Shown: positions 17,091-38,803 of the stretch, piece after piece
How positions within the stretch are numbered: position 1 is the first letter of the stretch
Layout: every line of letters begins with the position of its first letter
NCBI GenBank assembly: GCA_036443495.1
Contig: JAZFYL010000006.1
Span: 1 to 43,285 of the forward strand
From: Gemmatimonadales bacterium
Lineage (GTDB): Bacteria > Gemmatimonadota > Gemmatimonadetes > Gemmatimonadales > GWC2-71-9
Length of the DNA stretch: 43,285 nt
Reading direction: 5' to 3'
Notes under the pieces: generated by a model
The model's database searches: none
Seen by the model: the letters and a program-made list of their open reading frames with translations, nothing else
Told to the model about the DNA's origin: nothing
Position numbers and translations under genes: made by a program

Positions 17091-17113
17091 GGGCACTCCC
17101 CGGGGAGAACCCC

Positions 17114-17157: not shown

Positions 17158-17168
17158 CGAAGTTGCAA

Positions 17169-17243: not shown

Positions 17244-17297
17244 CGGTGTGGAGCACCGCAATATAGATGGGGAATCTGCGCGGAGAAACCCCTCTCG

Positions 17298-19037: not shown

Positions 19038-19112
19038 TCCAACAACCTCCAGTGCAGCCAGCGGTCCCGCAGGGGCGGCACACGCTGCCAAGTATCTTTC
19101 AAGCCTACGCAG

Positions 19113-19187
19113 TGGGCGAAGAGGGATTCGAACCCCCGACTTCCTGCTTGTAAGGCAGGCGCTCTGAACCAACTGAGCTATTCGCCC
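19113..19187 (-). tRNA. tRNA-Val (anticodon TAC), CCA not encoded
   Basis: Hand-folded: acceptor GGGCGAA/TTCGCCC, D arm GCTC-AGTTGGTTCA-GAGC, anticodon arm CCTGC-CTTACAA-GCAGG, T arm GGGGG-TTCGAAT-CCCTC, discriminator A. Confidence 0.9.
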
Positions 19188-19255
19188 TGGTGGGTCCAGC
19201 CGCCGTTGATGGCTCATGCCGCCCCCCACAACAACGTACCTCTCTGCTCGAACCG

Positions 19256-19447
19256 TTACAGGGCAATTCCCAGCGGGAACAGTACGCAATACCCAAGAAC
19301 CAGCAGAACGGCCGCGGCGCTCGCGCTGCCAGCGCCAAGGAGGACGTAGCCCCCCACCAACGATATCACCGCGGCACTCAATAGCGCTATGTTGCGAGGC
19401 CCCAGCGGCGAACGCCGAGTGGGCACGGTAGGGGGCTGATCAGGCAT
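19256..19447 (-). CDS. Small (63 aa) two-TM membrane protein, function unknown
   Basis: 'NIALLSAAVISLVGGYVLLG' and 'AAAVLLVLGYCVLFPLGIAL' are hydrophobic helices. A promoter-like element lies directly upstream. No family recognised. Confidence 0.4.
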   Translation of the reverse strand: MPDQPPTVPTRRSPLGPRNIALLSAAVISLVGGYVLLGAGSASAAAVLLVLGYCVLFPLGIAL

Positions 19448-19593: not shown

Positions 19594-20475
19594 TCACACA
19601 AGCTGGTCCTGGTCAGTCTCCGGAGAGTGTCCTTCCCCAGGGACAGTGTCAGCCGGGGCAATTCCGCTGCCTTCCTCCAGCCTCCAGTCGTCCGCCACCT
19701 CCCAGCCCTGATCCAGGGCCACCCGCCGTGGGAGGTCACGCCGACGCCGGTACCAGTGGGCGACGACGACGACACCGCCCAGGACGAGCCACATTCCCCC
19801 CGCCGCCAACCACGTGAGCCAGCCGTAACGCCGTTTCACGCTGGCGCGCCACATCGTATCGAACCGGTCGAGCGGGAACCCGGTGGTCGCGATCACGGCA
19901 GCTTCGAATCCGGTGCCTGCCCGGAGCCGTTGCAGCAGAGGAGCGAGGGTTCGGGAGGGATTCCGGTGCGCGAGCTCCACAACCGCGGACATGGCCAAGG
20001 CGTATGCCGAGGCGGCCGTATGTGATGAACCCCGCAGCGCGGCGTCGAGTTCACCCAAGGTCGGGACCCGGCCCCTGATGACCGCCAAGTTAAGGCCCCA
20101 GTTCTCGAGACGGCCGAACTCGCCCGCGGCCCATGCCGCATAGCCCTCGTCGAACCACAGCGGGACCCGCACGTCGACCGCCGCGTGCAAGGCAATGTGT
20201 GCCAGTTCATGCTGCAGGGTGGAGCGGATGGCGACGTCGTCCGCCCGCAAGACGATGGTCCCGGATCCCGGGAACGCCAGACCAACGCCCCACTGGGGAA
20301 CCTGGCCGCGAGACATGCGCGAGAATGTGACCTCGTCCGGCACGACGATGAGCCGCACGGGGCCCAGTTCTACGCGGCCGAGGGCCGGCCATTCAACCGG
20401 GGTGTCGGCGATCTCCGCCATCGCGATCGCCAGGTTCGCGTCGTTGGGCCAACTTACGACGGTGACCTTCCCCAC
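19594..20475 (-). CDS. HEXXH zinc metallopeptidase (gluzincin/MA-like) with a C-terminal TM anchor
   Basis: 'LQHELAHIALH' (HEXXH) followed by 'WFDEGYAAWAAGE' (candidate third ligand Glu). C-terminal TM 'WLTWLAAGGMWLVLGGVVVVAHW'. The start codon is uncertain (see findings). Confidence 0.7.
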   Translation of the reverse strand: MGKVTVVSWPNDANLAIAMAEIADTPVEWPALGRVELGPVRLIVVPDEVTFSRMSRGQVPQWGVGLAFPGSGTIVLRADDVAIRSTLQHELAHIALHAAVDVRVPLWFDEGYAAWAAGEFGRLENWGLNLAVIRGRVPTLGELDAALRGSSHTAASAYALAMSAVVELAHRNPSRTLAPLLQRLRAGTGFEAAVIATTGFPLDRFDTMWRASVKRRYGWLTWLAAGGMWLVLGGVVVVAHWYRRRRDLPRRVALDQGWEVADDWRLEEGSGIAPADTVPGEGHSPETDQDQLV

Positions 20476-20525
20476 TTGGGTGGTGATAGGGGTGGCGGGA
20501 GTTTGGAGGGCGAGAGCGATCAGGG

Positions 20526-21392
20526 CTACTCGGAGCGCGGGACGTCACCTCCTGAATCGACCAGCTCCAACAACTCCTGGCAGCGTTTCCCCCACGGGTT
20601 GAAACGATTGGCCTTGAAGCCGTCGGCCCAGGTCTGGCGCGCGGCCTCTTTCTCCCCAGAGAACCATTGGGCGCGCCCCAATTCGAAGTATGCTTCGATC
20701 AGGTTTGGTCCAAGATCGAGCGTCTTGGTGAGAAACGACAGCGCGTCCTCGTACATTTCGCGCTCGAGATACACCAGGCCCAGGTAGAAATGGGCGTAGA
20801 GTGTGGCCTTGCGGTCGTTGGCCAGACGAATCGCTTTCGAAAGGTGTTCGATCGCTTCGCCGAAGATGCGCTTCTTGAGACAGATATATCCCACATTGAT
20901 GCGGGCCAGGGAGTTCGCCGGCTCTTTCATGAGCACCTTGGAGAAAGTACCCAGGGCGTCGTCGTAGTCTTCGTTGAGCATTTGCGCCCACCCCAACAAG
21001 GAGCGCGCATGTGAATCGTCGGGGGCCAGGGCCAGGGCCTTGTTCAGAGCCTCAATGGCGCTGAGGTGATCGCCCAACGATATCAAGCTCCAACCCTTCT
21101 CGATGTAGGTCGACGCCCCGAGGTGGTCCGCGTGGACCGCGGGGCGAGCGCCGGTAAACTGGGGAGCCTGCGCGCCATCGGCAGCACCGGAGCGTTGTTT
21201 GTACCGCTCGACCAGCCCGCGGATGCCCTCTTTGACGTCCGCCAATTCGGACAACGCCCCATCGACCTCCTTGAAGTAGGCGATGATTTCCCGTTTCAAG
21301 GCTTCACGTTCGGCTTGCGAATCGGCCTGCTCCAGGCGCCGTTCGATGTCCGCGTGTCTGCCTCGCAGGGCGGCCAACCACGTTTCGGTCAT
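20526..21392 (-). CDS. Protein with an N-terminal coiled coil and C-terminal TPR repeats
   Basis: N-terminal heptad-like 'RRLEQADSQAEREALKREIIAYFKEVDGALSELADVKE'. TPR units such as 'SAIEALNKALALAPDDSHARSLLGWAQ' and 'EAIEHLSKAIRLAND'. Lies 5 nt downstream of cheW. Confidence 0.75.
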   Translation of the reverse strand: MTETWLAALRGRHADIERRLEQADSQAEREALKREIIAYFKEVDGALSELADVKEGIRGLVERYKQRSGAADGAQAPQFTGARPAVHADHLGASTYIEKGWSLISLGDHLSAIEALNKALALAPDDSHARSLLGWAQMLNEDYDDALGTFSKVLMKEPANSLARINVGYICLKKRIFGEAIEHLSKAIRLANDRKATLYAHFYLGLVYLEREMYEDALSFLTKTLDLGPNLIEAYFELGRAQWFSGEKEAARQTWADGFKANRFNPWGKRCQELLELVDSGGDVPRSE

Positions 21393-21397: not shown

Positions 21398-21880
21398 CTA
21401 CGCCTCGCTGCCGGCCTTGGCCCCGGCATCGGTCAATTGCAGTCGTTCGGTTGAACTGAACAGCTTGCCCGCGTTGAGCATGACGACCGTATCCGAGTTG
21501 TGGGACAGTAGCCCGGCGATGTACTTCGCCGCGAGTCCACGCACCATTGCCGGCGGTGCGGTGATGGCACCGGCATCCAGACGATGGACCTCCTGCACAT
21601 GATCCACCAACACGCCTACCGGGTGGTCGTCGATGCGCAAGATGATCAGCCGGGTTTCGTCCCCGATGTCCGGCGTGAAACCGAGTCGTTTGCGGAGATC
21701 AACGACCGGGGCCATGCCGTCGTCGTACGGTATTACCCCTTCCAGAAACTCCGCCGCGTTAGGCAGCGAGGTTGGAGTCGCATACCGGAGAATGCGGTCC
21801 ACCTGGCCGATCTCAAACGCGAAGAGCTGGTCGCCGACGCTGAAGATGACTACCTGAATCTCGTCGCCGCTCGTCGTCAT
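21398..21880 (-). CDS. cheW: CheW-like coupling protein
   Basis: 'QVVIFSVGDQLFAFEIGQVDRILRY', 'LEGVIPYDDGMAPVVDLRKRLG' and 'RLIILRIDDHPVGVLVDHVQEV' fit the CheW-domain pattern. Confidence 0.85.
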   Translation of the reverse strand: MTTSGDEIQVVIFSVGDQLFAFEIGQVDRILRYATPTSLPNAAEFLEGVIPYDDGMAPVVDLRKRLGFTPDIGDETRLIILRIDDHPVGVLVDHVQEVHRLDAGAITAPPAMVRGLAAKYIAGLLSHNSDTVVMLNAGKLFSSTERLQLTDAGAKAGSEA

Positions 21881-22302
21881 GATGCCATTCCGCGCTCGAT
21901 GATGGTCGGAGCCAGGGCCGCAAGGTCGATGATTGGAATGAACAGACCGTCCCGCTGCACCACGCCCACCGCTCCGGGCATGTCGTGGTCATCGGGTAGC
22001 GGGCGTACGGCATCGGTCGTGACTTCCACCGCGTGATCCACTTCCAAACAGATGCGCCGGCCATCCAAGGTTGCGACCACCGCCATCTCACCGAGGGCGC
22101 TGGGACAACCGCCACCATCCAGCGCCGCCCCCAAGTGAAAGACGGGAACCAGTCTCCCCCGTACCGGGATGACCCCACGCAAGGCGGGCGCGGTCGAAGG
22201 TACCGCGAAGGGCACTACCATATCGATAACTTCGATGAGCGGGTCCATGGCCAGCCCCACGTGCTTTTCTCCCGCCTGCACCAGCAGGAATCGGCTGTCC
22301 AT
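21877..22302 (-). CDS. Divergent CheW-like protein
   Basis: 'FLLVQAGEKHVGLAMDPLIEV', 'LRGVIPVRGRLVPVFHLGAAL', 'ICLEVDHAVEV', 'LFIPIIDLAAL'. 4-nt overlap with the downstream cheW. Confidence 0.7.
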   Translation of the reverse strand: MDSRFLLVQAGEKHVGLAMDPLIEVIDMVVPFAVPSTAPALRGVIPVRGRLVPVFHLGAALDGGGCPSALGEMAVVATLDGRRICLEVDHAVEVTTDAVRPLPDDHDMPGAVGVVQRDGLFIPIIDLAALAPTIIERGMAS

Positions 22303-22305
22303 CGG

Positions 22306-23385
22306 TCAACGTCCCGGCAGCGAGGCGAGCCAGGCGCTGGCCTCCGCGCCCAGGCGGTCGATGCCTAAGACCTCGTCTACTGCCCCAATCTCCACGGCCG
22401 CTTTCGGCATGCCGTAAATCGTCGCGCTCTCCTTGCTCTGAGCCATCCCGTACCCCCCAGCTCGGTGAATGGCCGCCAACCCCTCCGCACCATCCCGGCC
22501 CAATCCGGTCAGCACCATCCCCAAGGCCCGGTCGCCAAACACCGCCGCGACCGAATGAAAGAGCGGATCGGCCGCCGGGCGCACCCCCCATACCGTCGGC
22601 TCCTGGTTCAACACCAAGTGGGGACCGTCAGGGCCAAGTTCCACCTGCATATGATAATCGCCCGGGGCGATGTACGCCGTGTCGGTCGCGAGTGGCACCC
22701 GTTCACCACCTTCGACGACCTTGAGTCCGCTCTGTCCGTCAAGTCGCTCGGCCAGGCTCCTGGTAAACTTGGGCGGCATATGCTGGGCGATCACCACTGC
22801 GGCATCGTGCCCTGAAGAAATCCGGGGCAGGACTTCGGCCAACGCTCGCGGACCACCGGTGGACGCTGCGATTGCGAGGCAGCAGGTCGGCCGGCCGGGA
22901 ACGGCGAACAGCGGCTCAATGGCACCCACCGCGGGGCGCTGTGGCCGGGCGAGTACCGGGAGCCGATTCAGCTCCGCCGTTGCCGCGGCTTCGAGTGCCG
23001 CCAAGAGTCGGTCCGCGAACCTGTTCCTCGCGATCTCGGTGCGGTCCTCTTCCTTGGCGACCAGTTCGACCGCGCCTAGTTCGAGGGCACGGATGGCTGC
23101 GGCCGTCCCCTGCCCTGCGTAAGCACTCACCACGATGACCGGGCGGGGCAATTCCGACATGATGTAACCGATGGCCCCAAGGCCATCCAGTTCGGGCATC
23201 TCCAGATCCATGGTAATGAGATCCGGCATGAACTTGTGCAGTTTCTTGAGGGCGTCGGCTCCGTTTCGAGCGGTCGCGACGACCCGGAACCGGCCCGACG
23301 CGTCAATCACGGAACTCAGCAGCCGGCGGAAAAAGGGGCTGTCGTCGACCACCAGGACGGTGGGGCGGTCAGATACGCTCAACAC
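22306..23385 (-). CDS. cheB: Chemotaxis methylesterase/response regulator CheB
   Basis: REC domain ('[14 protein letters not shown]', '[13 protein letters not shown]') plus a methylesterase domain ('[11 protein letters not shown]', '[11 protein letters not shown]', '[11 protein letters not shown]'). Confidence 0.93.
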
Positions 23386-23854
23386 CGGTACGGACCGAGC
23401 TCACCTCCACCACACCGGAATCGACGTGAAGCCGGACCGTACGACCGAAGTCACCGCCCACGGCTTCGCCCACGATCGGTATCCGATGGGCTCCCAGTGT
23501 TTTTTGGGTCGATATGATGTTGCGTTCGCCCATCTGGATCGCCCCCGAAGCCAGCATGGCGAACATCGACGCTCCCCCAATCAGTCGGGCAGTAATCCGT
23601 CTAGGGCTGGCGCCCAACTCCGCCATTTCTTCCAGCATGGCCGGGATCGCGGTCTGGGGGAACTTTCGAAGGTTGGCGCCGCGCCTGGCCAGCGACGGGG
23701 TCGGGAGGAGAATGTGGGCCAGACCACCAACCTGAATTTTGGGATCGTGCAGGACCACCGCGACGCAGCTACCGAGCCCATAGGTCACCAGGACATCGCC
23801 GGCACATCCAACTCGGAAGTCGGCGACTTTGACCACCACGTCGTCGGCGTCCAT
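23369..23854 (-). CDS. cheD: Chemoreceptor glutamine deamidase CheD
   Basis: Starts at the ATG at 23854 ([10 protein letters not shown]), a 1-nt overlap with the cheR stop. '[14 protein letters not shown]', 'GGLAHILLP', 'LIGGASMF'. Confidence 0.88.
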
Positions 23855-24672
23855 CAAGCCACCTGGTAGATACGCTCGCGAACATCGAGCAGAGTGAAGC
23901 GCTTCTGGGCTTCGCCGAACATCGTTTCGACTTTTCCCAACACGAGAGCGCCATCGTCGGACAGGACATCCGCGAACACGGTGAACAACTGGAGCTGCGT
24001 GGGGCGATCGAAATAGATGACGACGTTGCGACACACGATCAGATCGTACGATGAGTGGAGCGGAGGATCCCGGATGAGATCGAGCTGCCGCACGTGGACC
24101 AGCGACCGGAGCCGCGGGACGACCTCATACTCTTCCCCGATGGGGCGACAATACTCGTCGCGGTGAAGCGCGGGGGCTTCATCGAACGCCGAGGCGGGAT
24201 ACCGGCCCGCTTCGGCGCGCGCCAGGCACTCGCGGTCGATGTCCGTCGCATCGATATGGACCCGATCCAGCCAGTGGCGACGGCCAAGCCGCTCCGACTG
24301 GTCGGCGAACAACATGGCCAGGGTGTGCGGCTCTTCGCCGGAGGCGCAGCCGGCGCTCCACACGCGGACATGCCCCTCACGTGCCTGGAACAAGGCCGGG
24401 AGGATGGTATCCGCCAGGCTCTCCCAAGTCTCCCGATTGCGATAGAACCGGGTCACGTTGATGGTCAGGGTGTCCTTGAGATGCTGGTACTCGTCCGGCC
24501 TTTCTCCGAGCAGCGACTGATACGCCTTGTAGGTGTGGACCCCGCAGGCGCGCATCCGGACGGCAATCCTCCGGCGCAGGCACTTTTGTTTGTATGCGTG
24601 CAACGCCAGGCCGGCAGCCTGGGAGATGGTCTGCGTCAACGCCTGGAAGCTGGCTTCATCGCCGGCGTTCAT
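23854..24672 (-). CDS. cheR: Chemotaxis protein methyltransferase CheR
   Basis: 'TINVTRFYRN', SAM-binding 'VWSAGCASGEEPHTLAMLF', 'YDLIVCRNVVIYFD'. Confidence 0.92.
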   Translation of the reverse strand: MNAGDEASFQALTQTISQAAGLALHAYKQKCLRRRIAVRMRACGVHTYKAYQSLLGERPDEYQHLKDTLTINVTRFYRNRETWESLADTILPALFQAREGHVRVWSAGCASGEEPHTLAMLFADQSERLGRRHWLDRVHIDATDIDRECLARAEAGRYPASAFDEAPALHRDEYCRPIGEEYEVVPRLRSLVHVRQLDLIRDPPLHSSYDLIVCRNVVIYFDRPTQLQLFTVFADVLSDDGALVLGKVETMFGEAQKRFTLLDVRERIYQVA

Positions 24673-26285
24673 CCGGCATTTTCCAGCATGTCGAGGTTGG
24701 CCCGAGCGAGTTGGTGTCCCGCGTTCAGCGTTGTCGCCCGCTTCCAGTATCCCTGGGCCCGCTCCCGATCGTTCCGTTTATAGGCCAGGTTCCCCAGTTT
24801 GAAGTACAGGTCGTCCCCCAAATCGGGGCTCAGTTTTGCCGCCCGCTCATACGAGGAATGGGCTTCATCGTAGTTCCCCGCACGATAGAACAGGTCGCCG
24901 AGGTTCTTGGAGATCTGCGGGATCGTGGGTTCCTGTTCGAAGGCTTTCCGCAACACCTGCTGGGCCTCGGGTACCGATCCTGCAACTTCGAGGAGCACGG
25001 CGAAGTTGTTGGCCAACACCGCCTGTTCCGGGTGGGCCTTCACCGCTTCGGCTGCGAGATCGCGGGCTGCATCGTGGTCCCCTTCCCCGGTGTGGGCCAG
25101 CGTCATGGCCCAATACCAGACGGCCGGCGGCGTACGATCGCCGAGCAGCTCCCTCGCCCTGGCCAGCCGCCCCGCGGCCACGCTGAAATCGTCTTGCTTG
25201 AGGGCCACGACCCCCCATCCGATCATGGCTCGGGGATCATCACGGGCCCGGCCGACGGCGTCGGCAAAGGTCGCTTCGGCCTCCTCCAGCCGGCCCATAC
25301 GCTCAAGGGCATATCCGAGATTGTGGAGTGCGCCCGGGCGGGGACCGCCCCGCTCCACCGCAAGCTCGAAGTGTTTGACTGCTTCCTCCCAGCGGGCCTG
25401 CTTGAGTGCGATGAGCCCCAGGTAGAAGGGTGCGCTGCCTTCCGACGGTCGCAATTCCGCAACCCGGCGGAACTCCCGCAGCCCCTCTTCCAACATGTCC
25501 GTCTTGTAGAACGCGATACCGAGGTTGCGGTGTTCTTCTACTCGCGCCTCGTTCACCCGGGGCGCCTCGCGAGTACTCGATGTTCCCACCCGCTGTACGA
25601 ACCCCGCGGTGATCAACCCGTAGAGCGCCTTGCCCAAATCGAACTCGGCGAGTCCGCTCTCCTCGAGCAGTTGGTCCACGTCGCGCTCGCCGTCGAGGTG
25701 ACAGAGGATCTGCTTCTGTTCCGGCGAAAGAGCGACTTCAGCCGAATCCAGGCGTTCCTGATCGACCGCGAAGATCAGGTCGAACGAGGGGACCTTCTTC
25801 TCGATGAGGCTCCACTCGTCGACCCGGCGGGCGCCCTCCAGCAACAGCGATTGCGGGTTGATCGCCACGACCATATCCTGCTCTGGTTGGACGCCAGCTT
25901 CGAAGTTGAAGGTCCCGGCGTGCCAGGTGAACAGGAAATACACGGCTTCTTCGATTTGCAGCCGTATGTATTCCTCCAACTCGGAGCGCTCGATCACCCC
26001 TTGCTCAACGAGAATCTCTCCGAGTTTCTTGTCGCGGAAGTTGCCCTGCAGCTCGAGGGCCTCGGTTTGCTGCTCGGTGGTGATGCGGCCGCTGGCGACC
26101 AGGATATCGCCCAGCCGATCGCGACGGTTCACGATCGAGGCGTAGCTGATGAGCCCCTCATCGAAGTAGATGTATCCGAAGTTCTGGCGGTCGGCCACCG
26201 CCAGGCAGCCGGTCTTCTTCCCCAAGGACAGTAGCTGAATGACGTCGGGGAGGCTCGCTTCCTTCAGGCTGCCTTTGATCGCCAT
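24669..26285 (-). CDS. PATAN/DUF4388-like N-terminal domain fused to TPR repeats (paralog 1)
   Basis: Start taken at the ATG at 26285 ([30 protein letters not shown]...YFDEG), which matches the DUF4388/PATAN signature as I remember it. It includes a helical insert ('RLGDILVASGRITTEQQTEALE...KLGEILVEQGVIERSELEEYI'). The C-terminal half is TPR ('EGLREFRRVAELRPSEGSAPFYLGLIAL' and others). Confidence 0.8.
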   Translation of the reverse strand: MAIKGSLKEASLPDVIQLLSLGKKTGCLAVADRQNFGYIYFDEGLISYASIVNRRDRLGDILVASGRITTEQQTEALELQGNFRDKKLGEILVEQGVIERSELEEYIRLQIEEAVYFLFTWHAGTFNFEAGVQPEQDMVVAINPQSLLLEGARRVDEWSLIEKKVPSFDLIFAVDQERLDSAEVALSPEQKQILCHLDGERDVDQLLEESGLAEFDLGKALYGLITAGFVQRVGTSSTREAPRVNEARVEEHRNLGIAFYKTDMLEEGLREFRRVAELRPSEGSAPFYLGLIALKQARWEEAVKHFELAVERGGPRPGALHNLGYALERMGRLEEAEATFADAVGRARDDPRAMIGWGVVALKQDDFSVAAGRLARARELLGDRTPPAVWYWAMTLAHTGEGDHDAARDLAAEAVKAHPEQAVLANNFAVLLEVAGSVPEAQQVLRKAFEQEPTIPQISKNLGDLFYRAGNYDEAHSSYERAAKLSPDLGDDLYFKLGNLAYKRNDRERAQGYWKRATTLNAGHQLARANLDMLENAG

Positions 26286-28315
26286 CAGCGCCACTCCTCG
26301 ATAACCCGACCGCCCGCGTCGGGCCATGTCCAGATCATCTTCTCGCGACTTCGCGGTCCACCGGCAGTCGGTGCCACGATACCGCTGGACCGTACCCGTC
26401 GGCGGTCACTGGGGCGTTTGCTGGGCGGACCCTCGAGGATCTCCCGAGCGAGCGCTGCCGAGGGCACGAGTTCCTGGACCTCGGCGGCGGTGAGCACGCG
26501 CTGCACCAAACCATGCAGGCTGCGCACTGATTCCACCGGACGGCTCGCCAGGTAGGCCGACAACTCGGCATCCTCGAGATCGAGTTTGGCCCGCAACAGG
26601 CGGGCGGCCACTTCCTGGCGAATTTCCCGTTCCGGAGGCGGCAACTCGACCACCAGTCCTCCCTCGAGTCTGGTCAGGAGCCGCGGCTCCACCCCAGTGA
26701 GCTCCGCCAGCGGCACGGTGGAGGTAAAGACCATTTGCCGCTCATCGGCCAGGAACTTGTTGAACAGGATGAACAGCATCTCCTGGGTGCGGTCTTTGTT
26801 AGCCACGAGGTGGACATCGTCGAGCAGAAAGGCACTGGCGTTTTCGTAGCGGGCCCGCCACTGGGTGACGCGCTCGTTGTCGACGGCATCAATCAGTTCG
26901 GCGATGAAATCGTGCGCATCGAGGCAGGCGACCCTGCTGCCCGCCTCCTTGGCCAGCTCGTTGCCGATACCGTGAAGGAGGTGCGTTTTCCCCCGACCGC
27001 TGCCACCGATGATGACCAGGGGGTTGTAGCGAACCCCTGGCTCCTCCGTCACGGCCAGGCCGCTCCGGAGGGCGACCCGATTGCCGCCGCTTTCGAAGAG
27101 TTCTTCCAATTTCCACAGGGGTGACGGGCCTGGCGGAGGCGTCGTCCCCGCCCTCGCCTCGGCGACGAGCCCCTCGGCAACCGCAACCTTATCAGGGTCA
27201 CGGAAGACCGCCGACCCGGCCACAGCGGATTCCATCTCCTCCGCCTCGTGGGCAAGGGCCTGGAGCCGGCCAACGTCGGTCTCAAAGGCCTCCAGCACGG
27301 ATTCGAGATCATCGGAGAGTTCGCCCTCGAGCAACAGTTCGAGCCGGGTGGTACGGTACCCCTCCCCTTCCCAGCGCATGATGGCCGCCGCCACCTTGGA
27401 TCGCCACGACTCGACCTGGTCCGAGACAGTGGCAACTACCTCAGACAGGAAGCTCCCGAATTCGTCGCCGAGGTTCGTTTCTTCGTCCCCCTCTTCGGCA
27501 GTCGCGACCGCCGGCGCTTCCGTCGCGCCCGACTCTTGCTGAGTTTCGTCCCCGACAGGCAACGTCGTCGCACGATCGATCGCTTGGGGGACCCCCGGTA
27601 TGTTCTTCAGGAAGGCGACCGCCTCGATAGCGCCGATGGGCGTATCGGAGACCGCCTGCTGCGCAATGAGGCGGTTTAGCGCGCCGATCAACTCACGCAC
27701 GTTGGTGAACTGCAACCCGGCCACCGCGTCGACGACATCCTTGTCGAATGTCACGTCCCGCTCCTGAGCCCGCCGTGCCAGAATGGCCGCACGGGTCTCG
27801 TAGTCCGGGGTGGCGATGTCCACGACGAGCCCACCGGCGAAGCGCCGAATCAACCGGTCGTCCAGGGCTTCGATGTCCACCGGGGGACGGTCGCTGGTCA
27901 GAACGATCTGGCGCTGCTCGGTTTGCATCACGTCGGTGAGGCGGATGAGTTCCGCCTGCATCTCCCGGCGGTGCGCCAGAAACTGCACGTCGTCCAACAG
28001 CAATAAGTCTGCGTCGCCCACGTGCCGGCGGTAGGCCTCCCCCTGCCCAGCCGCCACAGCGGTATGGAACGCCTCGACGAAATCATCCAGGGTGAGATAC
28101 TCGACCCGAAGATTCGAGTTGATTTCCAGCGCCCGGTGTCCGATCGCCATGAGCAGATGGGTTTTGCCCAGGCCCGGATCGGCGTAGACGAACAGGGGGT
28201 TGTAGCCCGTGCCGGGAGACTCGGCCACACTGCGGGCGGCGGTCACGGCCAGCCGATTCGCGGCACCCACGACCATACTGTCGAACCTGAAGTACGGATG
28301 GAGGTGATCGCTCAC
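26285..28315 (-). CDS. Tandem double DnaA-type AAA+ ATPase with no DnaA domain I and no DNA-binding domain IV
   Basis: Module 1: '[15 protein letters not shown]', Walker A '[10 protein letters not shown]', Walker B 'LLLLDDVQF', 'VLTSDRPP', '[19 protein letters not shown]', '[12 protein letters not shown]'. Module 2: '[13 protein letters not shown]', '[11 protein letters not shown]', 'FLLDDVHLV', 'VFTSTVP', '[19 protein letters not shown]', '[12 protein letters not shown]'. An acidic linker of about 190 aa separates them. The GTG start overlaps the mglA stop (GTGA). Confidence 0.85.
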
Positions 28316-28914
28316 GATAGACTTTCTCCAGACGCCAGCCTCTTGAGTACCAGCTCCGACACGCCTTTGAGGGTCTCGAACACCCCGGCTCCGTGCAGGC
28401 AGTCGGCGGAGTAGCTGCGAACCGCTCGAAAGTTCAGGGCCTCATCCAGCTCGTCGTGGCTCATGACCAGATCCGCGGGCAGGTCCTGCTTATTGTACTG
28501 ATACACCAACGGCAACGTCCGAATATCGATTCCGTGATCCAGGAGATTCTCCTGCAGATTCTGGAGGCTCTCCAGATTTTCGTCGAACCGACGGGCCTGG
28601 CTATCCGCCACGAAGACCACGCCGTCGGCCCCCTGCAATACGAGCTTGCGGGTTGCGTTGTAATAGACTTGCCCGGGAACCGTGTAGAGTTGGAAGCGGG
28701 TCGTGAAGCCCGAGATGCTTCCGAGGTCGATCGGCAGGAAATCGAAGAACAACGTGCGATCGGATTGCGTGGCCAAGGATACCATCTTGCCGCGGCGGTC
28801 TTCCGGCACCCGGCCGAAAATGTACTGCAAGTTGCTCGTCTTGCCCGACCGGCCCGGACCGTAGTATACGATCTTGCAGGTGATTTCCCTCGAGGTGAAG
28901 TTGACGAGTGACAT
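28312..28914 (-). CDS. mglA: Ras-like small GTPase MglA
   Basis: Near-colinear with Myxococcus MglA as I recall it: '[25 protein letters not shown]', '[10 protein letters not shown]', '[10 protein letters not shown]', '[10 protein letters not shown]', 'QYNKQDLP', 'GVFETLK'. Confidence 0.93.
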
Positions 28915-28919: not shown

Positions 28920-29381
28920 CTACCGTCCGAATAGCGAGCGCAGGCTGGAATGCAGTTCGTGCTCGAAGTCCTGGGCCAACACTGCCCCCCTCGGCTCATC
29001 CGCCGGAGCGGCGGCCACCAATTCCGCTATCATGCGATCGAAAAATAGCCGTACCACCCCGAACGTCGTGTCGCGCCCGAACACCACCAGTCCAATCCAC
29101 CGCCCGACGGGCGTGTCAAAACCGGAGAGGAACATTCCCTGGTCCATCCCCTGGTGAGACATCGCCTGAAAGCGAGACACACCCAGCACGCGCGCAAGCT
29201 CTTCCGTCGAGGATATGATGCCGGCCCCAAGAGCCGCGGCCGACATGACATCGAACGCCCGGGTAAACCCATGCTGGGCGACCACCTGCCCCGAACTCGT
29301 CATGAGCAGAGTGAGACGGGCTTCCGACTCGGTCAGAAAGGTCGCGAGTGGACGCTCCACCCAAGGTTCCAGGGCGCGCAT
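28920..29381 (-). CDS. mglB: MglB-like Roadblock/LC7 protein (probable MglA GAP)
   Basis: Starts at the ATG at 29381 ([12 protein letters not shown]). '[16 protein letters not shown]...[24 protein letters not shown]...[13 protein letters not shown]...[26 protein letters not shown]' parallels MglB. Lies 5 nt upstream of mglA. Confidence 0.8.
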
Positions 29382-29731
29382 TACCCCAACCGTCCCACCG
29401 CCTGGAGCATCTCGATTCGCGTGAGTCCGGCATTCACCTGACCATCTCCCACGGCCACCAGCAGCAACTCCGGGCCTGCGGGAACCACCAAAAGTGCTCC
29501 TGCGGAGGCCTGGAGGTGGAAAAAGGTCGGGGCGGCATAGCCTGTCGCATCGATTGCCGTCCCCAGTCGCCGGGTCAGGGACGCCGCCAGCGCGGCGATG
29601 GCGTCGCCGGGGACACCCTCCATGAGAGACTCCGCCACGATGAGGCCGTCCTCGGCAGAGACGACCATGGCGCCCGATATGCCTCTGAGGCGGGTGATCG
29701 GCTCGAGGGTAGCTTCGTACCCGCCGTTCAT
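29381..29731 (-). CDS. Roadblock/LC7-domain protein (second paralog)
   Basis: Starts at the ATG at 29731 (MNGGYEATLEPITRLRGISGAMVVSAEDGLIVAES...DAIAALAASL...LLVVPAGPELLLVAVGDGQVNAGLTRIEM), a typical Roadblock pattern. The ATGA overlaps the upstream gene, and there is a 1-nt overlap with mglB. Confidence 0.65.
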   Translation of the reverse strand: MNGGYEATLEPITRLRGISGAMVVSAEDGLIVAESLMEGVPGDAIAALAASLTRRLGTAIDATGYAAPTFFHLQASAGALLVVPAGPELLLVAVGDGQVNAGLTRIEMLQAVGRLG

Positions 29732-30585
29732 GTGAGTGACTCCATCCACTGATTCGCGGCCTCTGAGGCACGCACGCTCAGGGCGGCCAATCGCCCCAGC
29801 GGCACGCTTGACGCCCGTGCCACCAGGAGGATGGTATCGGCAGTCGGCGCCACCAGATGAAAGTTCCCGTCCGGGGCTTGGACCGTCAGGCTCTCCCAAG
29901 CTCCCATTTCGAGCAGTTTGGTAGCGCGGGAGGCCTCACGGGACACACCGGCGAGGTAGGCGGCGACGCGGTCAGCGACGTCGAGTCCGTCAGGCGATTG
30001 CAGTCCACCCCCTAGCCGCCGGCCCTGGGCATCCACCAGCAGGAGTCCGTCTTCCGCCCCCTCGAATCCCACGAAGACGGCCGGCATCTCGAGTTCGGCC
30101 TCTGTCTCCGCCGCGTCCGGAACCGGTTCAGCGACCGGCTCTTGAGCCAGCACGGGTGGGGCGGGGCTCTCCCCTGCCGCCTCACCCAGCCCTTCCCGGA
30201 CGCGGGCGATGGCTGCAGCGATCCCTTCGTCGTCCGGCATGACCTCCCGGGCCTGTTCGAGGTGTTCCTGGGCTTTCGGCAGTTCTCCGGCGACGAAGTA
30301 AAGGAAACCGATCCCTTTGTGGGCACCCGCGTGCCCAGGGTCGAGGCGGAGTGCAATGCCCCACTCGTCGAAGGCAACCTCGAAGTCACCGCAGTCACCG
30401 AGAATCCTGGCGTAGAGGTCGTGGGCATCGGCCAGATCCGGATAGCGGGACAATCCCGCCACGGCCACCTTCTGCGCCGAGGCCAACTGCCTGCGACGGC
30501 GCAGCGCCTCTCCCAAGGGCAGAAACACCAAGCTGGTCGGATCGGCCGCCAGCTGGGATGTCATGACTCGGATGTCTTCAGTCAT
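29728..30585 (-). CDS. TPR (N-terminal) fused to a Roadblock/LC7-like domain (C-terminal)
   Basis: TPR-like 'AHDLYARILGDCGDFEVAFDEWGIALRLDPGHAGAHKGIGFLYFVAGELPKAQEHLEQA'. A Pro/Ala/Glu linker follows. C-terminal 'DGLLLVDAQGRRLGG...VADRVAAYLAGVSREASRATKLLEMGAWESLTVQAPDGNFHLVAP..DTILLVARASSVPLGRL' is Roadblock-like. Confidence 0.65.
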   Translation of the reverse strand: MTEDIRVMTSQLAADPTSLVFLPLGEALRRRRQLASAQKVAVAGLSRYPDLADAHDLYARILGDCGDFEVAFDEWGIALRLDPGHAGAHKGIGFLYFVAGELPKAQEHLEQAREVMPDDEGIAAAIARVREGLGEAAGESPAPPVLAQEPVAEPVPDAAETEAELEMPAVFVGFEGAEDGLLLVDAQGRRLGGGLQSPDGLDVADRVAAYLAGVSREASRATKLLEMGAWESLTVQAPDGNFHLVAPTADTILLVARASSVPLGRLAALSVRASEAANQWMESLT

Positions 30586-31726
30586 GCCGTTCTTGCATTG
30601 CCTCTTCCAGCACCAGAGCCGCTTCGAGGTAGCGTGTTACAGCCTCCGTGTGGCCCTTCTCGTGTGGATTGCGCCCGGGTAACTCCAGCCACTGCTGCCA
30701 CACCAACCCTGCCTCCGCGAATTCCCCGGCCCCCACCAGGGCCACACCCAGCAGGCGATAGCCCATCGCCAACTCGGAGTCCAACTCCACGGCATCCCGC
30801 AGAGTCTCCACCGCTTCGGCAAACCGGTTGGCTGCCACTAGCACCCGACCCAAGATCAGGTAGGCGACGCTGTCATCAGGATAGCCCGCGACCGCATCGC
30901 GAGCAGTGTCCTCGGCCGCCCCCACATCAGCGACCGATAGGTGATCCTCGGTTCGCGCCACCAAGACCGCCAATTCTCGATCTTCGGCCTGCGTCACGGC
31001 GGTCTTGGGATCCTCAATGACGATAATACCGGCCGAGGCCAACCCGAAGAGAACCTTGGCGACCTCGAATTCCGAGCGTCCCAATTGGTCGGCGATCTCT
31101 CGAACATCGGCCTCACCGCCGACCGCGGACAGGAGGGCCCACTCGTCCGGTAGCAAATCAATTACGGCGGGCCCATTGCCATCACCGGCATTGAGCCTCG
31201 GTACGACCCCGAGGTGTGGAATCTTGGACTCGAATCGGCTCCACTCGTCGATTCGCCTCGCAGCCTCCATGAGCAGCGACTCGGTGGGGATCCGATAGTG
31301 TGCCTCTGCGGGAGACTGCCCCGGCTCACTTTCCTCGAAGGAGAAATAGCCTTCCGACCAACTCATGAGCTCGAAGATGACTTCTTCGACTTGATCACTG
31401 ATCTGTCGGTCGAGCTCTTTCCGTGATATCGCCCCGATTTCCACCAACAACTCGCCGAGGCGCTGGCCATCGCGACTCGCCTGCATGTCGACAGCGCGGT
31501 TGACGTCGTCGGCACTGACCTTACCAGACCTGATAAGCAGCGATCCGAGCGGATGGGGGTTGCTCTTGATTTCCGCTCCGACCACGGCGCCACCCTCGAA
31601 GTAGACCGTGCCGTCGTTCTGCCGGAGGTCGGAGGTCACGACGAGGACACCAGTCTTCCGCCCCAGGTCGAGTAACTGGAACACATCGTGAATGTGCAGT
31701 TCCTTCAGCGGGCCTTCGATCGTCAC
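30578..31726 (-). CDS. PATAN/DUF4388-like N-terminal domain fused to TPR repeats (paralog 2)
   Basis: 'MTIEGPLKELHIHDVFQLLDLGRKTGVLVV...VYFEGG' plus a helical insert ('PLGSLLIRSGKVSADDVNRAVDMQ...RLGELLVEIGAISRKELDRQISDQVEEV'). C-terminal TPR units ('SVAYLILGRVLVAANRFAEAVETLRDAVELDSE'). Confidence 0.8.
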   Translation of the reverse strand: MTIEGPLKELHIHDVFQLLDLGRKTGVLVVTSDLRQNDGTVYFEGGAVVGAEIKSNPHPLGSLLIRSGKVSADDVNRAVDMQASRDGQRLGELLVEIGAISRKELDRQISDQVEEVIFELMSWSEGYFSFEESEPGQSPAEAHYRIPTESLLMEAARRIDEWSRFESKIPHLGVVPRLNAGDGNGPAVIDLLPDEWALLSAVGGEADVREIADQLGRSEFEVAKVLFGLASAGIIVIEDPKTAVTQAEDRELAVLVARTEDHLSVADVGAAEDTARDAVAGYPDDSVAYLILGRVLVAANRFAEAVETLRDAVELDSELAMGYRLLGVALVGAGEFAEAGLVWQQWLELPGRNPHEKGHTEAVTRYLEAALVLEEAMQERHD

Positions 31727-31729: not shown

Positions 31730-34414
31730 TTACCCGGACGTTTCAAGGAAGATGTGAGCCAGATCCTTGGCCGACCGTAGCTGCGCTCTGGCACGCTGGG
31801 CGTATTCGCTCGCGGGATCCAGCATGATGACTCGCTGCCAGGCACCCATGGCATCGTCGTATTCCTTGGCCGTCAGCTTGATCGTCCCGATGTGGAACAA
31901 CGCCGCCAAGTGGTCGGGCTCGAACCGCAGGATGCGCTCGAGTGCATGGCGCGCCTCGGCTTTCCTGCCGTCCTCGATCAGTACTTCCGCCAAGAGCATC
32001 AGGGCATCGAATTCGTAGGGATCCAGCGCCAGCCAATCGACCAGCAGGTGCACCGCGGCACGACTCGATTCCTGCTCTTTCAGCAAGCGGGCAAGCGCCA
32101 GGGTCGCTTCGACGTAGGTCGGCAGAAGGTTCAGCGCCTTCTCGTAGGCCAGCCGAGCACCGGTGTAGTTCTGCCGAGCCTGTTCCAACCCACCCAGCTC
32201 GAACCAGACCTGCACCAGCCCGGAATCGAGCTGCAGTGCCGCCTGGTAGGCCTCCAGCGCGCCATCAAAGTCGCCCAGATGGGTCGCCACCTTGGCCTGC
32301 AATTGAGAGAGATCCGGTCTACCCGGGGCCAGCAGCTGAGCCTGCTTGAGATGGTCCAGGGCCGGCACCGGTTGTCCCAGCGCCAGCCTGGCCTGGGCAC
32401 ACGCCACGAGGCCCTCGACATCATCGCGGGAACGCCGGGCCAGCTCTTCCACGAGGCCGCCGGCTTCCTCGGGACGCCCCAGGGCCAGTAACGCGCGGAC
32501 CTCGCCGCGCAGCGCCTCGGTCTCCTCGGGATCATGCTCGCGGCTGCTGCGGTAGCGTTCCAAGGCCTCGCCGTAGAACCCGCGCTTCATGAAAATGTCG
32601 CCCAGCAGAACATTGGCCTTGACGCGTGAGGCCCCTCGCGCAACCGCTCGATTCAATTCCGCCGTTGCCAGCTCCAGCAAGCCCTTGTCGATGTAGTCTC
32701 GGGCCAGAACGTACGGCGCGTTGACATCGGCGACGGCATCCTCCGGCTCGGGTTCCGGAACGAGTTCGGCAAAGATGTCGTCCAGCACACCTTCGTCGAG
32801 TGTGAAGGCATCCCCGATCTCCTCGCCAGCGACATCGCCCGACAGCTCGGGCACGATGCTGATCGTCGGGTCTTCGTACTGCAGGTCGATTGTGAGACTG
32901 AATTTCTGGGGCACGTAGTAGGCTTCGAGTTCCAGAGCACGCTTGGTTTCGCGCAGGGCACCGTCGAAGTCTCCCAGCTGGCTCAGGGTGAAGCTCAGGT
33001 TGTAGTGGGCCGGGGCATGGTTTGGATCCGCCTCCACCGAGCGGGCGAAGGCGTTCTTGGCGTCGGAGAAGCGCTTCAACTCCATCAGCACCATTCCCAC
33101 TCCGTTCCAGGCGATCGCGTTAGCCGGGGTATCGGCGAGGATCTGCCTGTAGGCCTCCAGCGCCGGCTGAAAACGTTTGTGCTGGAAGAGTTCCAACGCC
33201 AAGTTGAGCTTGGCCGCCACCACCTGACGGTTGCTCTCGACTGCCGTCCGAAACGCCTTCAACGCGTCCTCGGGGTCCTCCTGGTCGGCCAGCAGCACCC
33301 CGAGATTGTTCCAGGCCAAGGCGTACCGGGAATCGTGAGAGATGGCATTCTCGTAAGACACTCGGGCCAGTTCCCGCTGTCCGGCCTGGTGCAAACAGAC
33401 GCCCCGTTCGTTCCACAACTTGGGAGAATCTTCGAATTCACGGACCAGCGAATCGTAAAGGTTGAGCGCCGCACTGAAGTCGTGCCGGAGCAGATCCACC
33501 TCGGCAATGGCCTCCAGGACCAGGCGCCTCTCTTCGCCACTGTCCAGGGCGAGCCGGTACTCCCGGAGAGCCTCGGCGAAGTATCCCTTCTGCCGGAATG
33601 CGAGGCCGAGGTTGTAGTGCGCCAAGGCCCTTCCTTCAGCGATCTGCGGCCGTTTGTGGTCCCCCTCTTTGTCTTCCGGCCGTCTGTCGGTGCCTGAGGT
33701 GAGCGTCAGGTTGGCCTGTGCCCGGGCCAAGGTGGGATTCAGTTGCACGGCACGTCGGGTGGCCGCCCGGGCATCTTCGTGGAGGCCCATGTCGCCATAG
33801 ACGAAAGCCACCAGGTAGTGCGCGTCGGCGTATTCGGGGTTGAGCTTGATTGCCGCCTTCAGTTCATCCAACGCCTGCTCGTTCAGGCCTCGATTATAGA
33901 GGGCTTCGCCATGGTAGAACCGCGCCAGGGAACTCTGGGGCTCGATCCGGCACGCTTCCTCAAACCAATCCGAAGCGGCCTCGACCTGGCCGCGCGCCTT
34001 TTCAGCCATCCCCAGTTGAATGATGGTCGGCGTATCGTGGGGCTGGCGGGACAACAAAGCATCGAACTCGGCGATGGCTTCGTCATAGTGACCCAGTGAG
34101 GCGTAGGCCCGGCCGAGTTTCCACCGGGCCTCATGGTCCTCCGGTTGCTCCCGCAGTTTTTCCTGGAGGCCCGCTACGAGGGAATCGTAATACCCGGACG
34201 AGGTATAGGCGGCCTCCAGGTTGTCCTGGGCCACCTGCATCTTGGGGTCCAATTCGAGGGCACGCGTGAACTCGGCAATGGCCTCGGGGATGAGTCGCTT
34301 CTGATAGTAGAGAACGCCCAGGTTGTTGTGGGCACCGGCGTCGGATGGATCGATACGATCGGCAAAGGAGCGGAGGACCGCTAAATCGCGTTCCGAGATC
34401 GCCGAGACAGCCAT
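31730..34414 (-). CDS. Large (894 aa) all-TPR protein
   Basis: Starts at the ATG at 34414 (MAVSAISERDLAVL), 4 nt after the cheC stop. Contains many consecutive canonical TPR units, for example 'AHNNLGVLYYQKRLIPEAIAEFTRALELDPK' and 'ALAWNNLGVLLADQEDPEDALKAFRTAVESN'. Confidence 0.8.
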   Translation of the reverse strand: MAVSAISERDLAVLRSFADRIDPSDAGAHNNLGVLYYQKRLIPEAIAEFTRALELDPKMQVAQDNLEAAYTSSGYYDSLVAGLQEKLREQPEDHEARWKLGRAYASLGHYDEAIAEFDALLSRQPHDTPTIIQLGMAEKARGQVEAASDWFEEACRIEPQSSLARFYHGEALYNRGLNEQALDELKAAIKLNPEYADAHYLVAFVYGDMGLHEDARAATRRAVQLNPTLARAQANLTLTSGTDRRPEDKEGDHKRPQIAEGRALAHYNLGLAFRQKGYFAEALREYRLALDSGEERRLVLEAIAEVDLLRHDFSAALNLYDSLVREFEDSPKLWNERGVCLHQAGQRELARVSYENAISHDSRYALAWNNLGVLLADQEDPEDALKAFRTAVESNRQVVAAKLNLALELFQHKRFQPALEAYRQILADTPANAIAWNGVGMVLMELKRFSDAKNAFARSVEADPNHAPAHYNLSFTLSQLGDFDGALRETKRALELEAYYVPQKFSLTIDLQYEDPTISIVPELSGDVAGEEIGDAFTLDEGVLDDIFAELVPEPEPEDAVADVNAPYVLARDYIDKGLLELATAELNRAVARGASRVKANVLLGDIFMKRGFYGEALERYRSSREHDPEETEALRGEVRALLALGRPEEAGGLVEELARRSRDDVEGLVACAQARLALGQPVPALDHLKQAQLLAPGRPDLSQLQAKVATHLGDFDGALEAYQAALQLDSGLVQVWFELGGLEQARQNYTGARLAYEKALNLLPTYVEATLALARLLKEQESSRAAVHLLVDWLALDPYEFDALMLLAEVLIEDGRKAEARHALERILRFEPDHLAALFHIGTIKLTAKEYDDAMGAWQRVIMLDPASEYAQRARAQLRSAKDLAHIFLETSG

Positions 34415-34418
34415 TGCC

Positions 34419-35039
34419 TCAGCCGAGACGGATAGCGTCGAAGATCGCGCGGAGAGACGCCAGGTCGGGCAGGAGTAAGAAGTGAGCCGAGACCTGGTCT
34501 TGCGCCTCCTCGAAATGGAATCGGGTTTCGACACACAAGACGAAATCCCGGTCGCTTCCAAAGGTGAGGTATGTGGACGTCAACACGGCCGCTGCGTAGT
34601 CCACGACCAAGCTCGGGACTGACGGCACCAGCATCATTCCCAGGAAGTCGCTCAACGCGTTCAGGTAGGCGCTACTGAGAATGTTGCCCACTTCCTTGAG
34701 CCCGGATTCTTCCATTTCGCCCAATGTCGTGGTCGTGCCGACGGGCCGGCGCATGATCAGATCGCACACCCTGTGCGCGCCCTCGGAGGGGAACATCAGC
34801 AGCGTCCGCCCGGTCAGGTCTCCCATCATCTGCATGAGGACCGCTGCAATGACGTCGTCGGGGTCACCCAACACAGCCGCCACTTCCTCCAGGGGGGTGA
34901 CGTTCACAGTGGGGACGTTGATCATGATCTTCCGATCAACCATCTGCGAGAGAGCGGTCGCCGCGTGGCCCGCGCCGATGTTCGCCACTTCCCGCAAGGC
35001 GTCCAATTGCAGTGGTTCGAGGTCCCGCACGTCGTCCAT
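34419..35039 (-). CDS. cheC: CheC-type CheY-P phosphatase
   Basis: Starts at the ATG at 35039 (MDDVRDLEPLQ). Has two E-x2-N active-site motifs, 'DALREVANIGAGHAATALS' and 'SGLKEVGNILSSAYLNALS'. Confidence 0.8.
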   Translation of the reverse strand: MDDVRDLEPLQLDALREVANIGAGHAATALSQMVDRKIMINVPTVNVTPLEEVAAVLGDPDDVIAAVLMQMMGDLTGRTLLMFPSEGAHRVCDLIMRRPVGTTTTLGEMEESGLKEVGNILSSAYLNALSDFLGMMLVPSVPSLVVDYAAAVLTSTYLTFGSDRDFVLCVETRFHFEEAQDQVSAHFLLLPDLASLRAIFDAIRLG

Positions 35040-35049
35040 CACGCCTCCA

Positions 35050-36930: not shown

Positions 36931-36934
36931 GGAG

Positions 36935-38786: not shown

Positions 38787-38803
38787 GGCTCGGTCGGCCT
38801 GTG

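Follow-up and report, generated by a model that had tools for sequence, protein, structure and literature searches.

A tandem DnaA-type AAA+ protein encoded beside a PATAN-TPR gene in Gemmatimonadota

AAA+ domains of the DnaA type are known almost only from the initiation of replication and its control. In Synechocystis, PilB1 and PilC, two proteins of the pilus motor, are binding partners of PATAN domains, and the helical insertion of these domains is similar to the MshEN/GspE_N repeat (bioRxiv 10.1101/2021.06.11.447907). PATAN genes near mglA/mglB have been noted earlier, without any DnaA-like gene (PMC4316618). Here, we analyze a protein of 676 amino acids encoded between mglA and a PATAN-TPR gene in a stretch of 43,285 nt from a Gemmatimonadales bacterium (GCA_036443495.1, contig JAZFYL010000006.1, positions 1-43,285 of the forward strand), hereafter called the window. 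This protein contains two DnaA-type AAA+ modules in a single chain, and we propose to name the tandem DnaA family to which it belongs DnaA2x. Our searches of the literature on DnaA with MglA or PATAN, tandem DnaA, DUF4388 and MshEN returned no description of this family, nor of an ATPase of the DnaA type associated with PATAN, MglA or Che. This agrees with a first-pass annotation of the window, made from its sequence, which knew of no tandem DnaA-module protein in a Che/Mgl context. The fold and the family are thus known, and what is new is the tandem architecture, an extra domain, a C-terminal peptide and a fixed signalling context.

Architecture and nucleotide sites of DnaA2x

The gene and the segments of the protein that it encodes are as follows.

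26285..28315, minus strand: DnaA2x, tandem DnaA-type AAA+ protein of 676 amino acids with a GTG start (open reading frame, two PF00308 matches, orthologues)
27599..28315, minus strand: module 1 (residues 1-239), a complete DnaA domain III (Bac_DnaA, 171.9 bits; match to Bacillus subtilis DnaA 8bv3, E 8.5e-53)
27467..27598, minus strand: variable acidic linker (residues 240-283), of varying length and sequence in alignment A1 and predicted to be disordered (predicted local distance difference test, pLDDT, below 50 over residues 242-283)
27122..27466, minus strand: family-specific conserved helical middle domain (residues 284-398; alignments A1 and A2; helices with pLDDT 72-92)
26426..27121, minus strand: module 2 (residues 399-630), a second DnaA domain III (Bac_DnaA, 126.3 bits)
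26285..26425, minus strand: basic tail (residues 631-676 plus stop) with the conserved peptide [23 protein letters not shown] at its end (alignment A1)

The whole protein scores 293.5 bits against PF00308 (gathering cut-off 23), which places it in the generic DnaA/Hda family, and 38 bits against PF00004. Scored piecewise, Bac_DnaA reaches 171.9 bits on residues 1-241 and 126.3 bits on residues 385-676, as compared with 42.6 and 36.2 bits for IstB_IS21. The more specific models for IstB (NF038214, 106 for a cut-off of 200), DnaC (NF005931, 31.7 for a cut-off of 357) and Hda (TIGR03420, 151.5 for a cut-off of 194.8) all remain under their thresholds. With the AlphaFold2 (AF2) model as query, the best Foldseek match is DnaA domain III, with a template modelling (TM) score of 0.93 (8bv3), and both modules carry the initiator-type helical insert, as DnaA domain III does. 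In the structural alignment by Foldseek, module 1 shares about 40% of its residues with domain III of B. subtilis DnaA. Identity between the two modules is 30% (E 3e-32), and each of them is about 20% identical to E. coli Hda. Mean identities are 34% between module 1 and canonical DnaA, 28% between module 2 and canonical DnaA, and 27% between the modules. A neighbour-joining tree of the modules with DnaA, Hda and DnaC (200 bootstraps) resolved no grouping, every support being at or below 0.22. Altogether, profile scores and Foldseek matches assign both modules to the DnaA branch, and not to IstB, DnaC or Hda; IstB, one of the other AAA+ clades that the first-pass annotation had named as possible origins, scores far below DnaA, as does DnaC.

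The two sets of DnaA-family motifs read in the first-pass annotation are all in place, and Pfam likewise gives two Bac_DnaA matches. Module 1 contains K51/T52 in Walker A, D108/D109 in Walker B, D142 in sensor I, R154/R158 in box VII and R207 in sensor II. The corresponding residues of module 2 are K443/T444, D499/D500, box VII R545/R549 and sensor II R598. E. coli DnaA aligns with the modules almost without gaps, and the residues that we take to form its Walker A (K178) and B (D235/D236), its box VII (R281 and R285) and its sensor II (R334) are kept in both modules, as is L290. The AID-1 residue R227 is unconserved, its position being occupied by G100 in module 1 and E491 in module 2; at the positions of V211 and R245, module 1 has His/Glu and module 2 has Ile/Arg.

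An interesting clue to the mechanism comes from the comparison of the nucleotide sites within the family. Among 63 Gemmatimonadales-type sequences, 60-63 keep, in each of the two modules, the Walker A Lys/Thr, the Walker B DD pair, the two arginines of box VII and that of sensor II. The 118 Longimicrobiales-type sequences have an intact module 1; their module 2 has lost GKT and sensor II and changed DD to HG, yet its R545 and R549 are retained in 118 of 118. A dead pocket together with a kept finger fits the arrangement of neighbouring DnaA protomers, and this suggests that the arginine finger of module 2 acts on the ATP site of module 1 and completes it. An internal pseudo-dimer with an arginine finger in trans had been suggested from the window sequence. 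The asymmetric decay of module 2 lends this idea indirect support; the inter-domain geometry of the AF2 model is unreliable (predicted TM score, pTM, 0.47).

The protein begins where domain III of DnaA begins, as had been claimed. Indeed, TIGR00362 (DnaA, 437 positions) aligns to DnaA2x over profile positions 102-337 only, and the alignment with B. subtilis DnaA starts at residue 110 of the latter. We found neither DnaA_N (PF11638) nor Bac_DnaA_C (PF08299) nor any other DNA-binding family in the modules, the linker or the tail (Pfam, E<=10), and a clamp-binding motif of the Hda type (QL[SD]LF-like) is absent from the N-terminus, [13 protein letters not shown], as read by eye. The absence of domain I, of domain IV and of such a motif, all three proposed earlier, is therefore confirmed, and the same Pfam search covered the possibility of a DNA-binding domain hidden in the linker or the tail.

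The first-pass annotation described the region between the modules as an acidic linker of about 190 residues. The stretch is indeed acidic, but it consists of about 45 variable residues followed by a conserved acidic helical domain of about 115 residues. This middle domain carries the motifs DEFGxFLSEV, WR, [16 protein letters not shown] and FRDPD, which give the family pattern DEFGxFL..WR..RWxxEGxRTxRLExLL..FRDPD, and its mean net charge is about -11. At E<=10 it has no Pfam match other than a sub-threshold one to ABC_tran_CTD (E 0.099). It is helical in the full-length AF2 model (pTM 0.47); modelled alone and without alignment, it gave a pLDDT of 67.8 and a pTM of 0.36, too poor for a fold search. 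At the other end of the protein, the earlier reading had missed the conserved C-terminal peptide, for which the tail pattern is SSGIVAP...EKMVWxWPDxGDRIxEEWR-COOH. W664, P665, R670, E673, W675 and R676 are invariant in alignment A1, and W664 and P665 are near-invariant in the Gemmatimonadales and Longimicrobiales types alike. The tail is basic, with an isoelectric point (pI) of 11.7, and is disordered in the AF2 model. DnaA2x as a whole is acidic (pI 4.8; mean net charge of the family -20), which argues against DNA binding.

The GTG start is backed by orthologues that start at the identical residue in alignment A1, and GGAG lies 10 nt 5' of it. The mglA stop overlaps this start as GTGA, and the DnaA2x stop shares 1 nt with the ATG of the PATAN-TPR gene (TGATG). 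From the latter junction, the true start of the PATAN-TPR protein, which begins MAIKGSL, is at 26285 and not at 26327. Given these overlaps, mglA, DnaA2x and the PATAN-TPR gene are arranged for translational coupling. Both the 676-residue frame overlapping mglA and its placement between mglA and the PATAN-TPR gene had been read correctly from the window, as the list of open reading frames, the two junctions and the orthologue starts attest. A chance open reading frame is ruled out by full-length orthologues in hundreds of genomes.

Family, gene neighbourhood and relatives

The neighbours of DnaA2x in the window are listed below, beginning with the two genes that overlap it.

24669..26285, minus strand: PATAN (DUF4388)-TPR protein, with a c-di-GMP-binding motif of the MshEN kind and TPRs at its C-terminus (PF14332, 4.5e-36; NF053729, 43.5 bits)
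28312..28914, minus strand: mglA, 200 amino acids (full-length match to Myxococcus xanthus MglA 5ymx, E 2e-72)
28920..29381, minus strand: weak Roadblock/LC7-like protein, 153 amino acids (PF03259, E 0.0018, 18.4 bits, under the cut-off of 23; orthologues of 153 amino acids in loci L001 and L005)
29381..29731, minus strand: Roadblock/LC7 protein (MglB-like), 116 amino acids (PF03259, 3.6e-09)
29728..30585, minus strand: TPR-Roadblock fusion (TPR families; Robl_LC7, E 9e-4; conserved in related loci)
30578..31726, minus strand: second PATAN-TPR protein (PF14332, 2.6e-33)
31730..34561, minus strand: large TPR protein, start uncertain (many TPR families; position conserved in related loci)
34419..36930, minus strand: CheC-like phosphatase and CheA (gene order in L001; CheY and CheW further upstream by synteny)
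21398..24672, minus strand: CheR, CheD, CheB and two CheW, downstream of the PATAN-TPR gene (synteny)
19594..21392, minus strand: TPR protein and Peptidase_MA_2 protein (the peptidase also adjoins the core pair in Longimicrobiales, L087 and L089)

In 61 of 61 loci, the gene directly downstream of DnaA2x encodes a PATAN-TPR protein, in most of them with an overlap of 1 nt; it also does so in the Longimicrobiales loci L086, L087 and L089. Directly upstream, mglA is found in 71 of 77 Gemmatimonadales-type loci by strict criteria, typically with a 4-nt overlap, and a separate tblastn view places it upstream in the remaining six too. The Gemmatimonadales order, conserved as a whole, runs rluD-cheW-cheY-cheA-cheC-TPR-PATAN/TPR-TPR/Roadblock-Roadblock-Roadblock-like-mglA-DnaA2x-PATAN/TPR and continues with cheR-cheD-cheB-cheW-cheW-TPR-peptidase MA-TPR-mraW. 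In Longimicrobiales the order is (divIVA...)ileS-rluD-DnaA2x-PATAN/TPR-peptidase MA, and the stretches fetched there (contigs of 3.7 to 16 kb) contain no che, Roadblock or mglA gene. A third branch (L002) has cheW-cheY-cheA-AAA-cheW-cheC-TPR-PATAN-DnaA2x, without mglA. Matching of these orders reveals the shared frame ileS-rluD-[DnaA2x-PATAN/TPR]-peptidase MA, the core pair being flanked on both sides by che and mgl genes in Gemmatimonadales only. Since PATAN adjoins DnaA2x in all three branches and mglA in one, the invariant partner of DnaA2x is the PATAN protein, and the link to MglA is real but lineage-specific. The first-pass idea of an accessory of the MglA GTPase module, in the form in which it was put, finds no support in this comparison: mglA is upstream in the Gemmatimonadales branch only, the Longimicrobiales stretches and the third branch having none.

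Residues 71-122 of the PATAN-TPR protein score 43.5 bits with NF053729, the model of an MshE-related cyclic-di-GMP-binding motif (cut-off 38), and the DnaA2x/PATAN-TPR unit may thus respond to c-di-GMP. Across L001-L085, MglA is 78-90% identical to the window copy and DnaA2x 47-75% at the same loci; from these identities, DnaA2x evolves much faster than the GTPase to which it is coupled. Three consecutive Roadblock/LC7-type genes (28920-30585) lie just upstream of mglA, versus a single MglB in Myxococcus.

The Che cluster (21398-24672 and 34419-37700) encodes CheA, three CheW, CheY, CheC, CheR, CheB and CheD. No gene for a methyl-accepting chemotaxis protein was seen in the window or in the syntenic loci, so the receptor for CheR, CheB and CheD is either encoded elsewhere or unconventional. 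The che/mgl/DnaA2x cluster as a whole is wedged between ileS-rluD and a complete dcw cluster, on one strand throughout (flanking regions 618-19289 and 37779-42860). The dcw genes are mraW, ftsI, murE, murF, mraY, murD, ftsW, murG, murC, ftsA and ftsZ, followed by an M23 peptidase, and no open reading frame of the size of mraZ was noticed before mraW.

In a search of 5.8 billion proteins, DnaA2x gave thousands of matches, the best 120 of which are full-length tandem proteins. Those that bear a name are 'DnaA/Hda family protein [Gemmatimonadales bacterium]' at NCBI and 'chromosomal replication initiator protein DnaA' at JGI. The latter label, borne by many tandem proteins in JGI/IMG, is a mis-annotation; wrong DnaA labels of this kind can lead astray both the prediction of origins and the rotation of genomes on dnaA in Gemmatimonadota. 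In an exhaustive HMMER scan of representatives at 50% identity, dozens of clusters were full-length, with identities as low as about 34%, and these have the middle domain and the C-terminal peptide in common (alignment A2). No cultured strain appears among the named cluster members. One branch of the family has a different module 2 and names from Longimicrobiales, and a third, small branch bears labels such as 'Candidatus Cloacimonetes bacterium 4572_55' and 'Gemmatimonadetes bacterium'. A scan for the middle-domain pattern over one genome per GTDB species matched 391 genomes; it used the narrow alignment A4 and is biased towards Gemmatimonadales-type members. The best 80 of these 391 are essentially all Gemmatimonadota metagenome-assembled genomes. 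The window protein itself has the features that define the family, namely two PF00308 matches, the middle domain and the C-terminal EKxVWxWP..DRxxEE (alignments A1, A2 and A4). DnaA2x is thus a phylum-wide family of Gemmatimonadota.

Some loci carry odd labels. Three short contigs with a typical Gemmatimonadota-type locus (L006, L022 and L068) sit in metagenome-assembled genomes labelled Acidimicrobiia, Solirubrobacterales and Bacillota, probably through binning errors. L022 and L023 have different phylum labels and agree in length (4,070 bp), match position, identity, E-value and tblastn offsets; they look identical by these match data.

More distant relatives were also found. Proteins of about 1.9 thousand residues combine an N-terminal MshEN with two Bac_DnaA modules and are encoded inside a type IV pilus cluster that includes prepilin peptidase, PilB, PilT, PilC and PilS. 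To illustrate this, L090 (2359-13973, GCA_030620115.1) encodes MshEN and Bac_DnaA fusions of 398, 983 and 1990 residues in a type IV pilus cluster. Such proteins are a separate, larger kind of non-initiator DnaA-type ATPase. In another protein (P0242, 876 residues), many TPR repeats are fused to a single Bac_DnaA module. A further one (P0181, 673 residues) apparently has two DnaA modules followed by a helix-turn-helix resembling DnaA domain IV, as read by eye in alignment A2, and would be a tandem DnaA that retains DNA binding.

Is DnaA2x the initiator of its host? The window is not oriC, since it contains no DnaA box with at most one mismatch (0 matches for 3.1 expected), lacks dnaN and shows a cumulative GC skew that is monotonic, without a switch. 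An origin at this place, which the first-pass annotation had wished to see checked, is thus contradicted by the absence of boxes and of a skew switch and by a gene that adjoins mglA and the PATAN-TPR gene. Among the hallmarks of a canonical DnaA, the protein has domain III and lacks domain I, domain IV and an oriC location. A dnaA-dnaN-recF-gyrB operon context has been described in Gemmatimonadetes (PMC5109545), which indirectly points to a separate canonical dnaA in the host phylum. Two candidates for such a gene were discarded. P0191 is a mis-started fragment. P0248 (357 residues) looked like a Gemmatimonadota DnaA with domain I; its DnaA domain I and an alphaproteobacterial-looking domain III start run into DnaA2x module 1 sequence, and it is probably a chimeric metagenome assembly. 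The view that a DnaA-like ATPase has been repurposed is well borne out: without a DNA-binding domain and away from the origin, DnaA2x serves a use other than DnaA-box-dependent initiation.

Possible function and rival explanations

We propose that DnaA2x could act together with the PATAN-TPR protein as a pseudo-dimeric switch or scaffold under ATP control, with an output that bears on polarity, type IV pili or division-site events, an explanation to which we give about half of our credence. The two modules would pack as adjacent protomers of a DnaA oligomer, R549, the box VII finger of module 2, completing the ATP site of module 1. Binding and hydrolysis of ATP by module 1 would then set the conformation or the oligomeric state, and in Gemmatimonadales the second live site, in module 2, would contribute another step. 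Partners could bind to the middle domain and to the C-terminal WxWP...EEWR peptide, the peptide perhaps docking on the TPR domain of the PATAN-TPR protein. The output would be the spatial control of a polar machine, namely of type IV pili, of polarity or of events at the division site. The DnaA2x/PATAN-TPR unit of Gemmatimonadales would be wired into a Che-like pathway and the MglA/Roadblock GTPase module, the genes of which surround it and are translationally coupled to it. This proposal is supported by the two DnaA-type modules without a DNA-binding domain, their conserved catalytic and finger residues, the asymmetric decay in Longimicrobiales, the adjacency of the PATAN-TPR gene and its MshEN-type motif, the gene frame shared between orders, the fusions of MshEN or TPR with Bac_DnaA, the binding of PATAN to pilus motors, the acidity of the protein and the absence of DnaA boxes.

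Several observations weigh against it. R158, the finger of module 1, is invariant in Longimicrobiales although the site of module 2 is dead, which a simple closed pseudo-dimer does not explain; higher oligomers may form, or the finger may act on another protein such as DnaA. Module 2 retains I475, K507 and R509, the equivalents of residues of E. coli DnaA that contact single-stranded DNA. With a pTM of 0.47 for the full-length AF2 model, the relative placement of the modules is unreliable. As for the cellular output, pili, polarity or division would follow from neighbours and analogy only.

One could also assume that the DnaA core has left replication altogether to become the ATP-driven core of a hitherto unrecognised cytoplasmic signalling unit of DnaA2x and PATAN-TPR, the free finger contacting genuine DnaA in the boldest version. 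This seems possible to us but rather unlikely. If true, such a unit would set polarity, type IV pilus or division-site activity and, in Gemmatimonadales, integrate the Che pathway with MglA; in the boldest version, polarity or division would be tied directly, at the molecular level, to the state of replication.

A regulator of the replication cycle would be a different matter: the modules would hetero-oligomerise with genuine DnaA and cap it, titrate it or stimulate its ATP hydrolysis as Hda does, coupling replication state to division or motility. The closeness of module 1 to DnaA domain III (E 8.5e-53; TM 0.93), the conservation of the oligomerisation residues R281, R285 and L290 in both modules and the invariance of the module 1 finger even beside a dead module 2 site speak in its favour, as does the position of the locus, with the ileS-rluD region on one side and the division cluster dcw on the other. 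However, the proximity of dcw may be plain synteny, the AID-1 residue R227 is unconserved (G100, E491), there is no clamp motif of the Hda type and TIGR03420 stays at 151.5 for a cut-off of 194.8. The gene invariably linked to DnaA2x encodes a PATAN-TPR signalling protein and not a replication protein, and we hold such a regulator to be improbable. An equally low chance is given to a dedicated accessory of MglA, that is a nucleotide-dependent effector, exchange factor or timer of this GTPase. The GTGA overlap, the presence of mglA directly upstream in at least 71 of 77 Gemmatimonadales-type loci, the close orthology of the encoded protein with M. xanthus MglA and the three Roadblock genes just upstream all fit this role. 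It is difficult to reconcile with the Longimicrobiales contigs of 3.7 to 16 kb, which have no mglA, Roadblock or che gene, with the third group, which has che, TPR and PATAN but no mglA, and with the different pace of the two proteins at the same loci (78-90% identity for MglA versus 47-75% for DnaA2x).

Could DnaA2x act on nucleic acids instead? An ATPase forming ATP-dependent filaments on single-stranded DNA or RNA, for instance in nucleoid anchoring or pilus-linked DNA uptake, would account for the residues of module 2 that correspond to the H and B motifs of E. coli DnaA (I475, K507 and R509), for the basic tail of pI 11.7 and for the MshEN-fused relatives in a type IV pilus cluster. On the other hand, the whole protein has a pI of 4.8 and a mean net charge of -20, the middle domain carries about -11, module 1 has His/Glu at the H and B positions, and no DNA-binding domain is detectable; the chance that this explanation holds is slim. 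Finally, a decaying dnaA duplicate or an IstB-like transposition helper without a function of its own could be imagined from the weak IstB_IS21 matches and from the public sources that label DnaA2x as DnaA. A decaying gene would hardly keep its full length, its motifs and a fixed synteny across hundreds of species, and the IstB scores lie far under both the DnaA scores and the IstB cut-offs, with no transposase gene nearby. Conservation effectively refutes this last idea, and we rejected it.

Significance and comparison with known systems

With its ATPase and finger kept, DNA binding dropped and a link to PATAN-TPR, the DnaA2x family would widen the known roles of the DnaA AAA+ clade. It is also a candidate for a missing component of MglA/PATAN polarity systems outside Myxococcota. 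The Longimicrobiales variants, with their dead site and kept finger, constitute a natural experiment, which makes the mechanism directly testable.

A parallel can be drawn with several described systems. The MglA/MglB-Frz system of Myxococcus and the cyanobacterial systems of PixG/PixE/PatA, PATAN regulators of type IV pili, resemble the window, in which MglA, Roadblock, Che and two PATAN genes are co-oriented. Neither of them has a DnaA-type ATPase, and the window cluster differs in turn by having no gene for a methyl-accepting chemotaxis protein; no gene of the RomR/RomX type was seen in the window either. Two AAA+ modules per polypeptide are also found in p97/Cdc48, NSF and ClpB, which Foldseek lists for that reason. 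These proteins belong, however, to another AAA+ clade, and their superposition gives a root-mean-square deviation above 20 A and a TM score of about 0.25.

Like DnaA itself, both modules have Walker A and B, the two sensors (I and II), the arginines of box VII and the helical insert of the initiator type. Unlike DnaA, DnaA2x has no domain I, domain II linker or domain IV and combines two AAA+ modules in one chain. It is moreover acidic, with a middle domain and a C-terminal peptide, and it is encoded away from dnaN without nearby DnaA boxes. Hda/HdaA is comparable as a DnaA-family AAA+ protein without a DNA-binding domain, whose finger acts on the ATP site of another AAA+ protein. Hda is, on the other hand, a single module with an N-terminal clamp motif, and E. 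coli Hda is only about 20% identical to DnaA2x. Dead nucleotide sites with active arginine fingers occur in ORC/Cdc6 and in clamp loaders. The Longimicrobiales DnaA2x is similar in that the site of module 2 is dead, its finger is kept and the neighbouring module is live. The former are, however, multi-subunit machines that load onto DNA, whereas DnaA2x is one fused chain encoded beside signalling genes.

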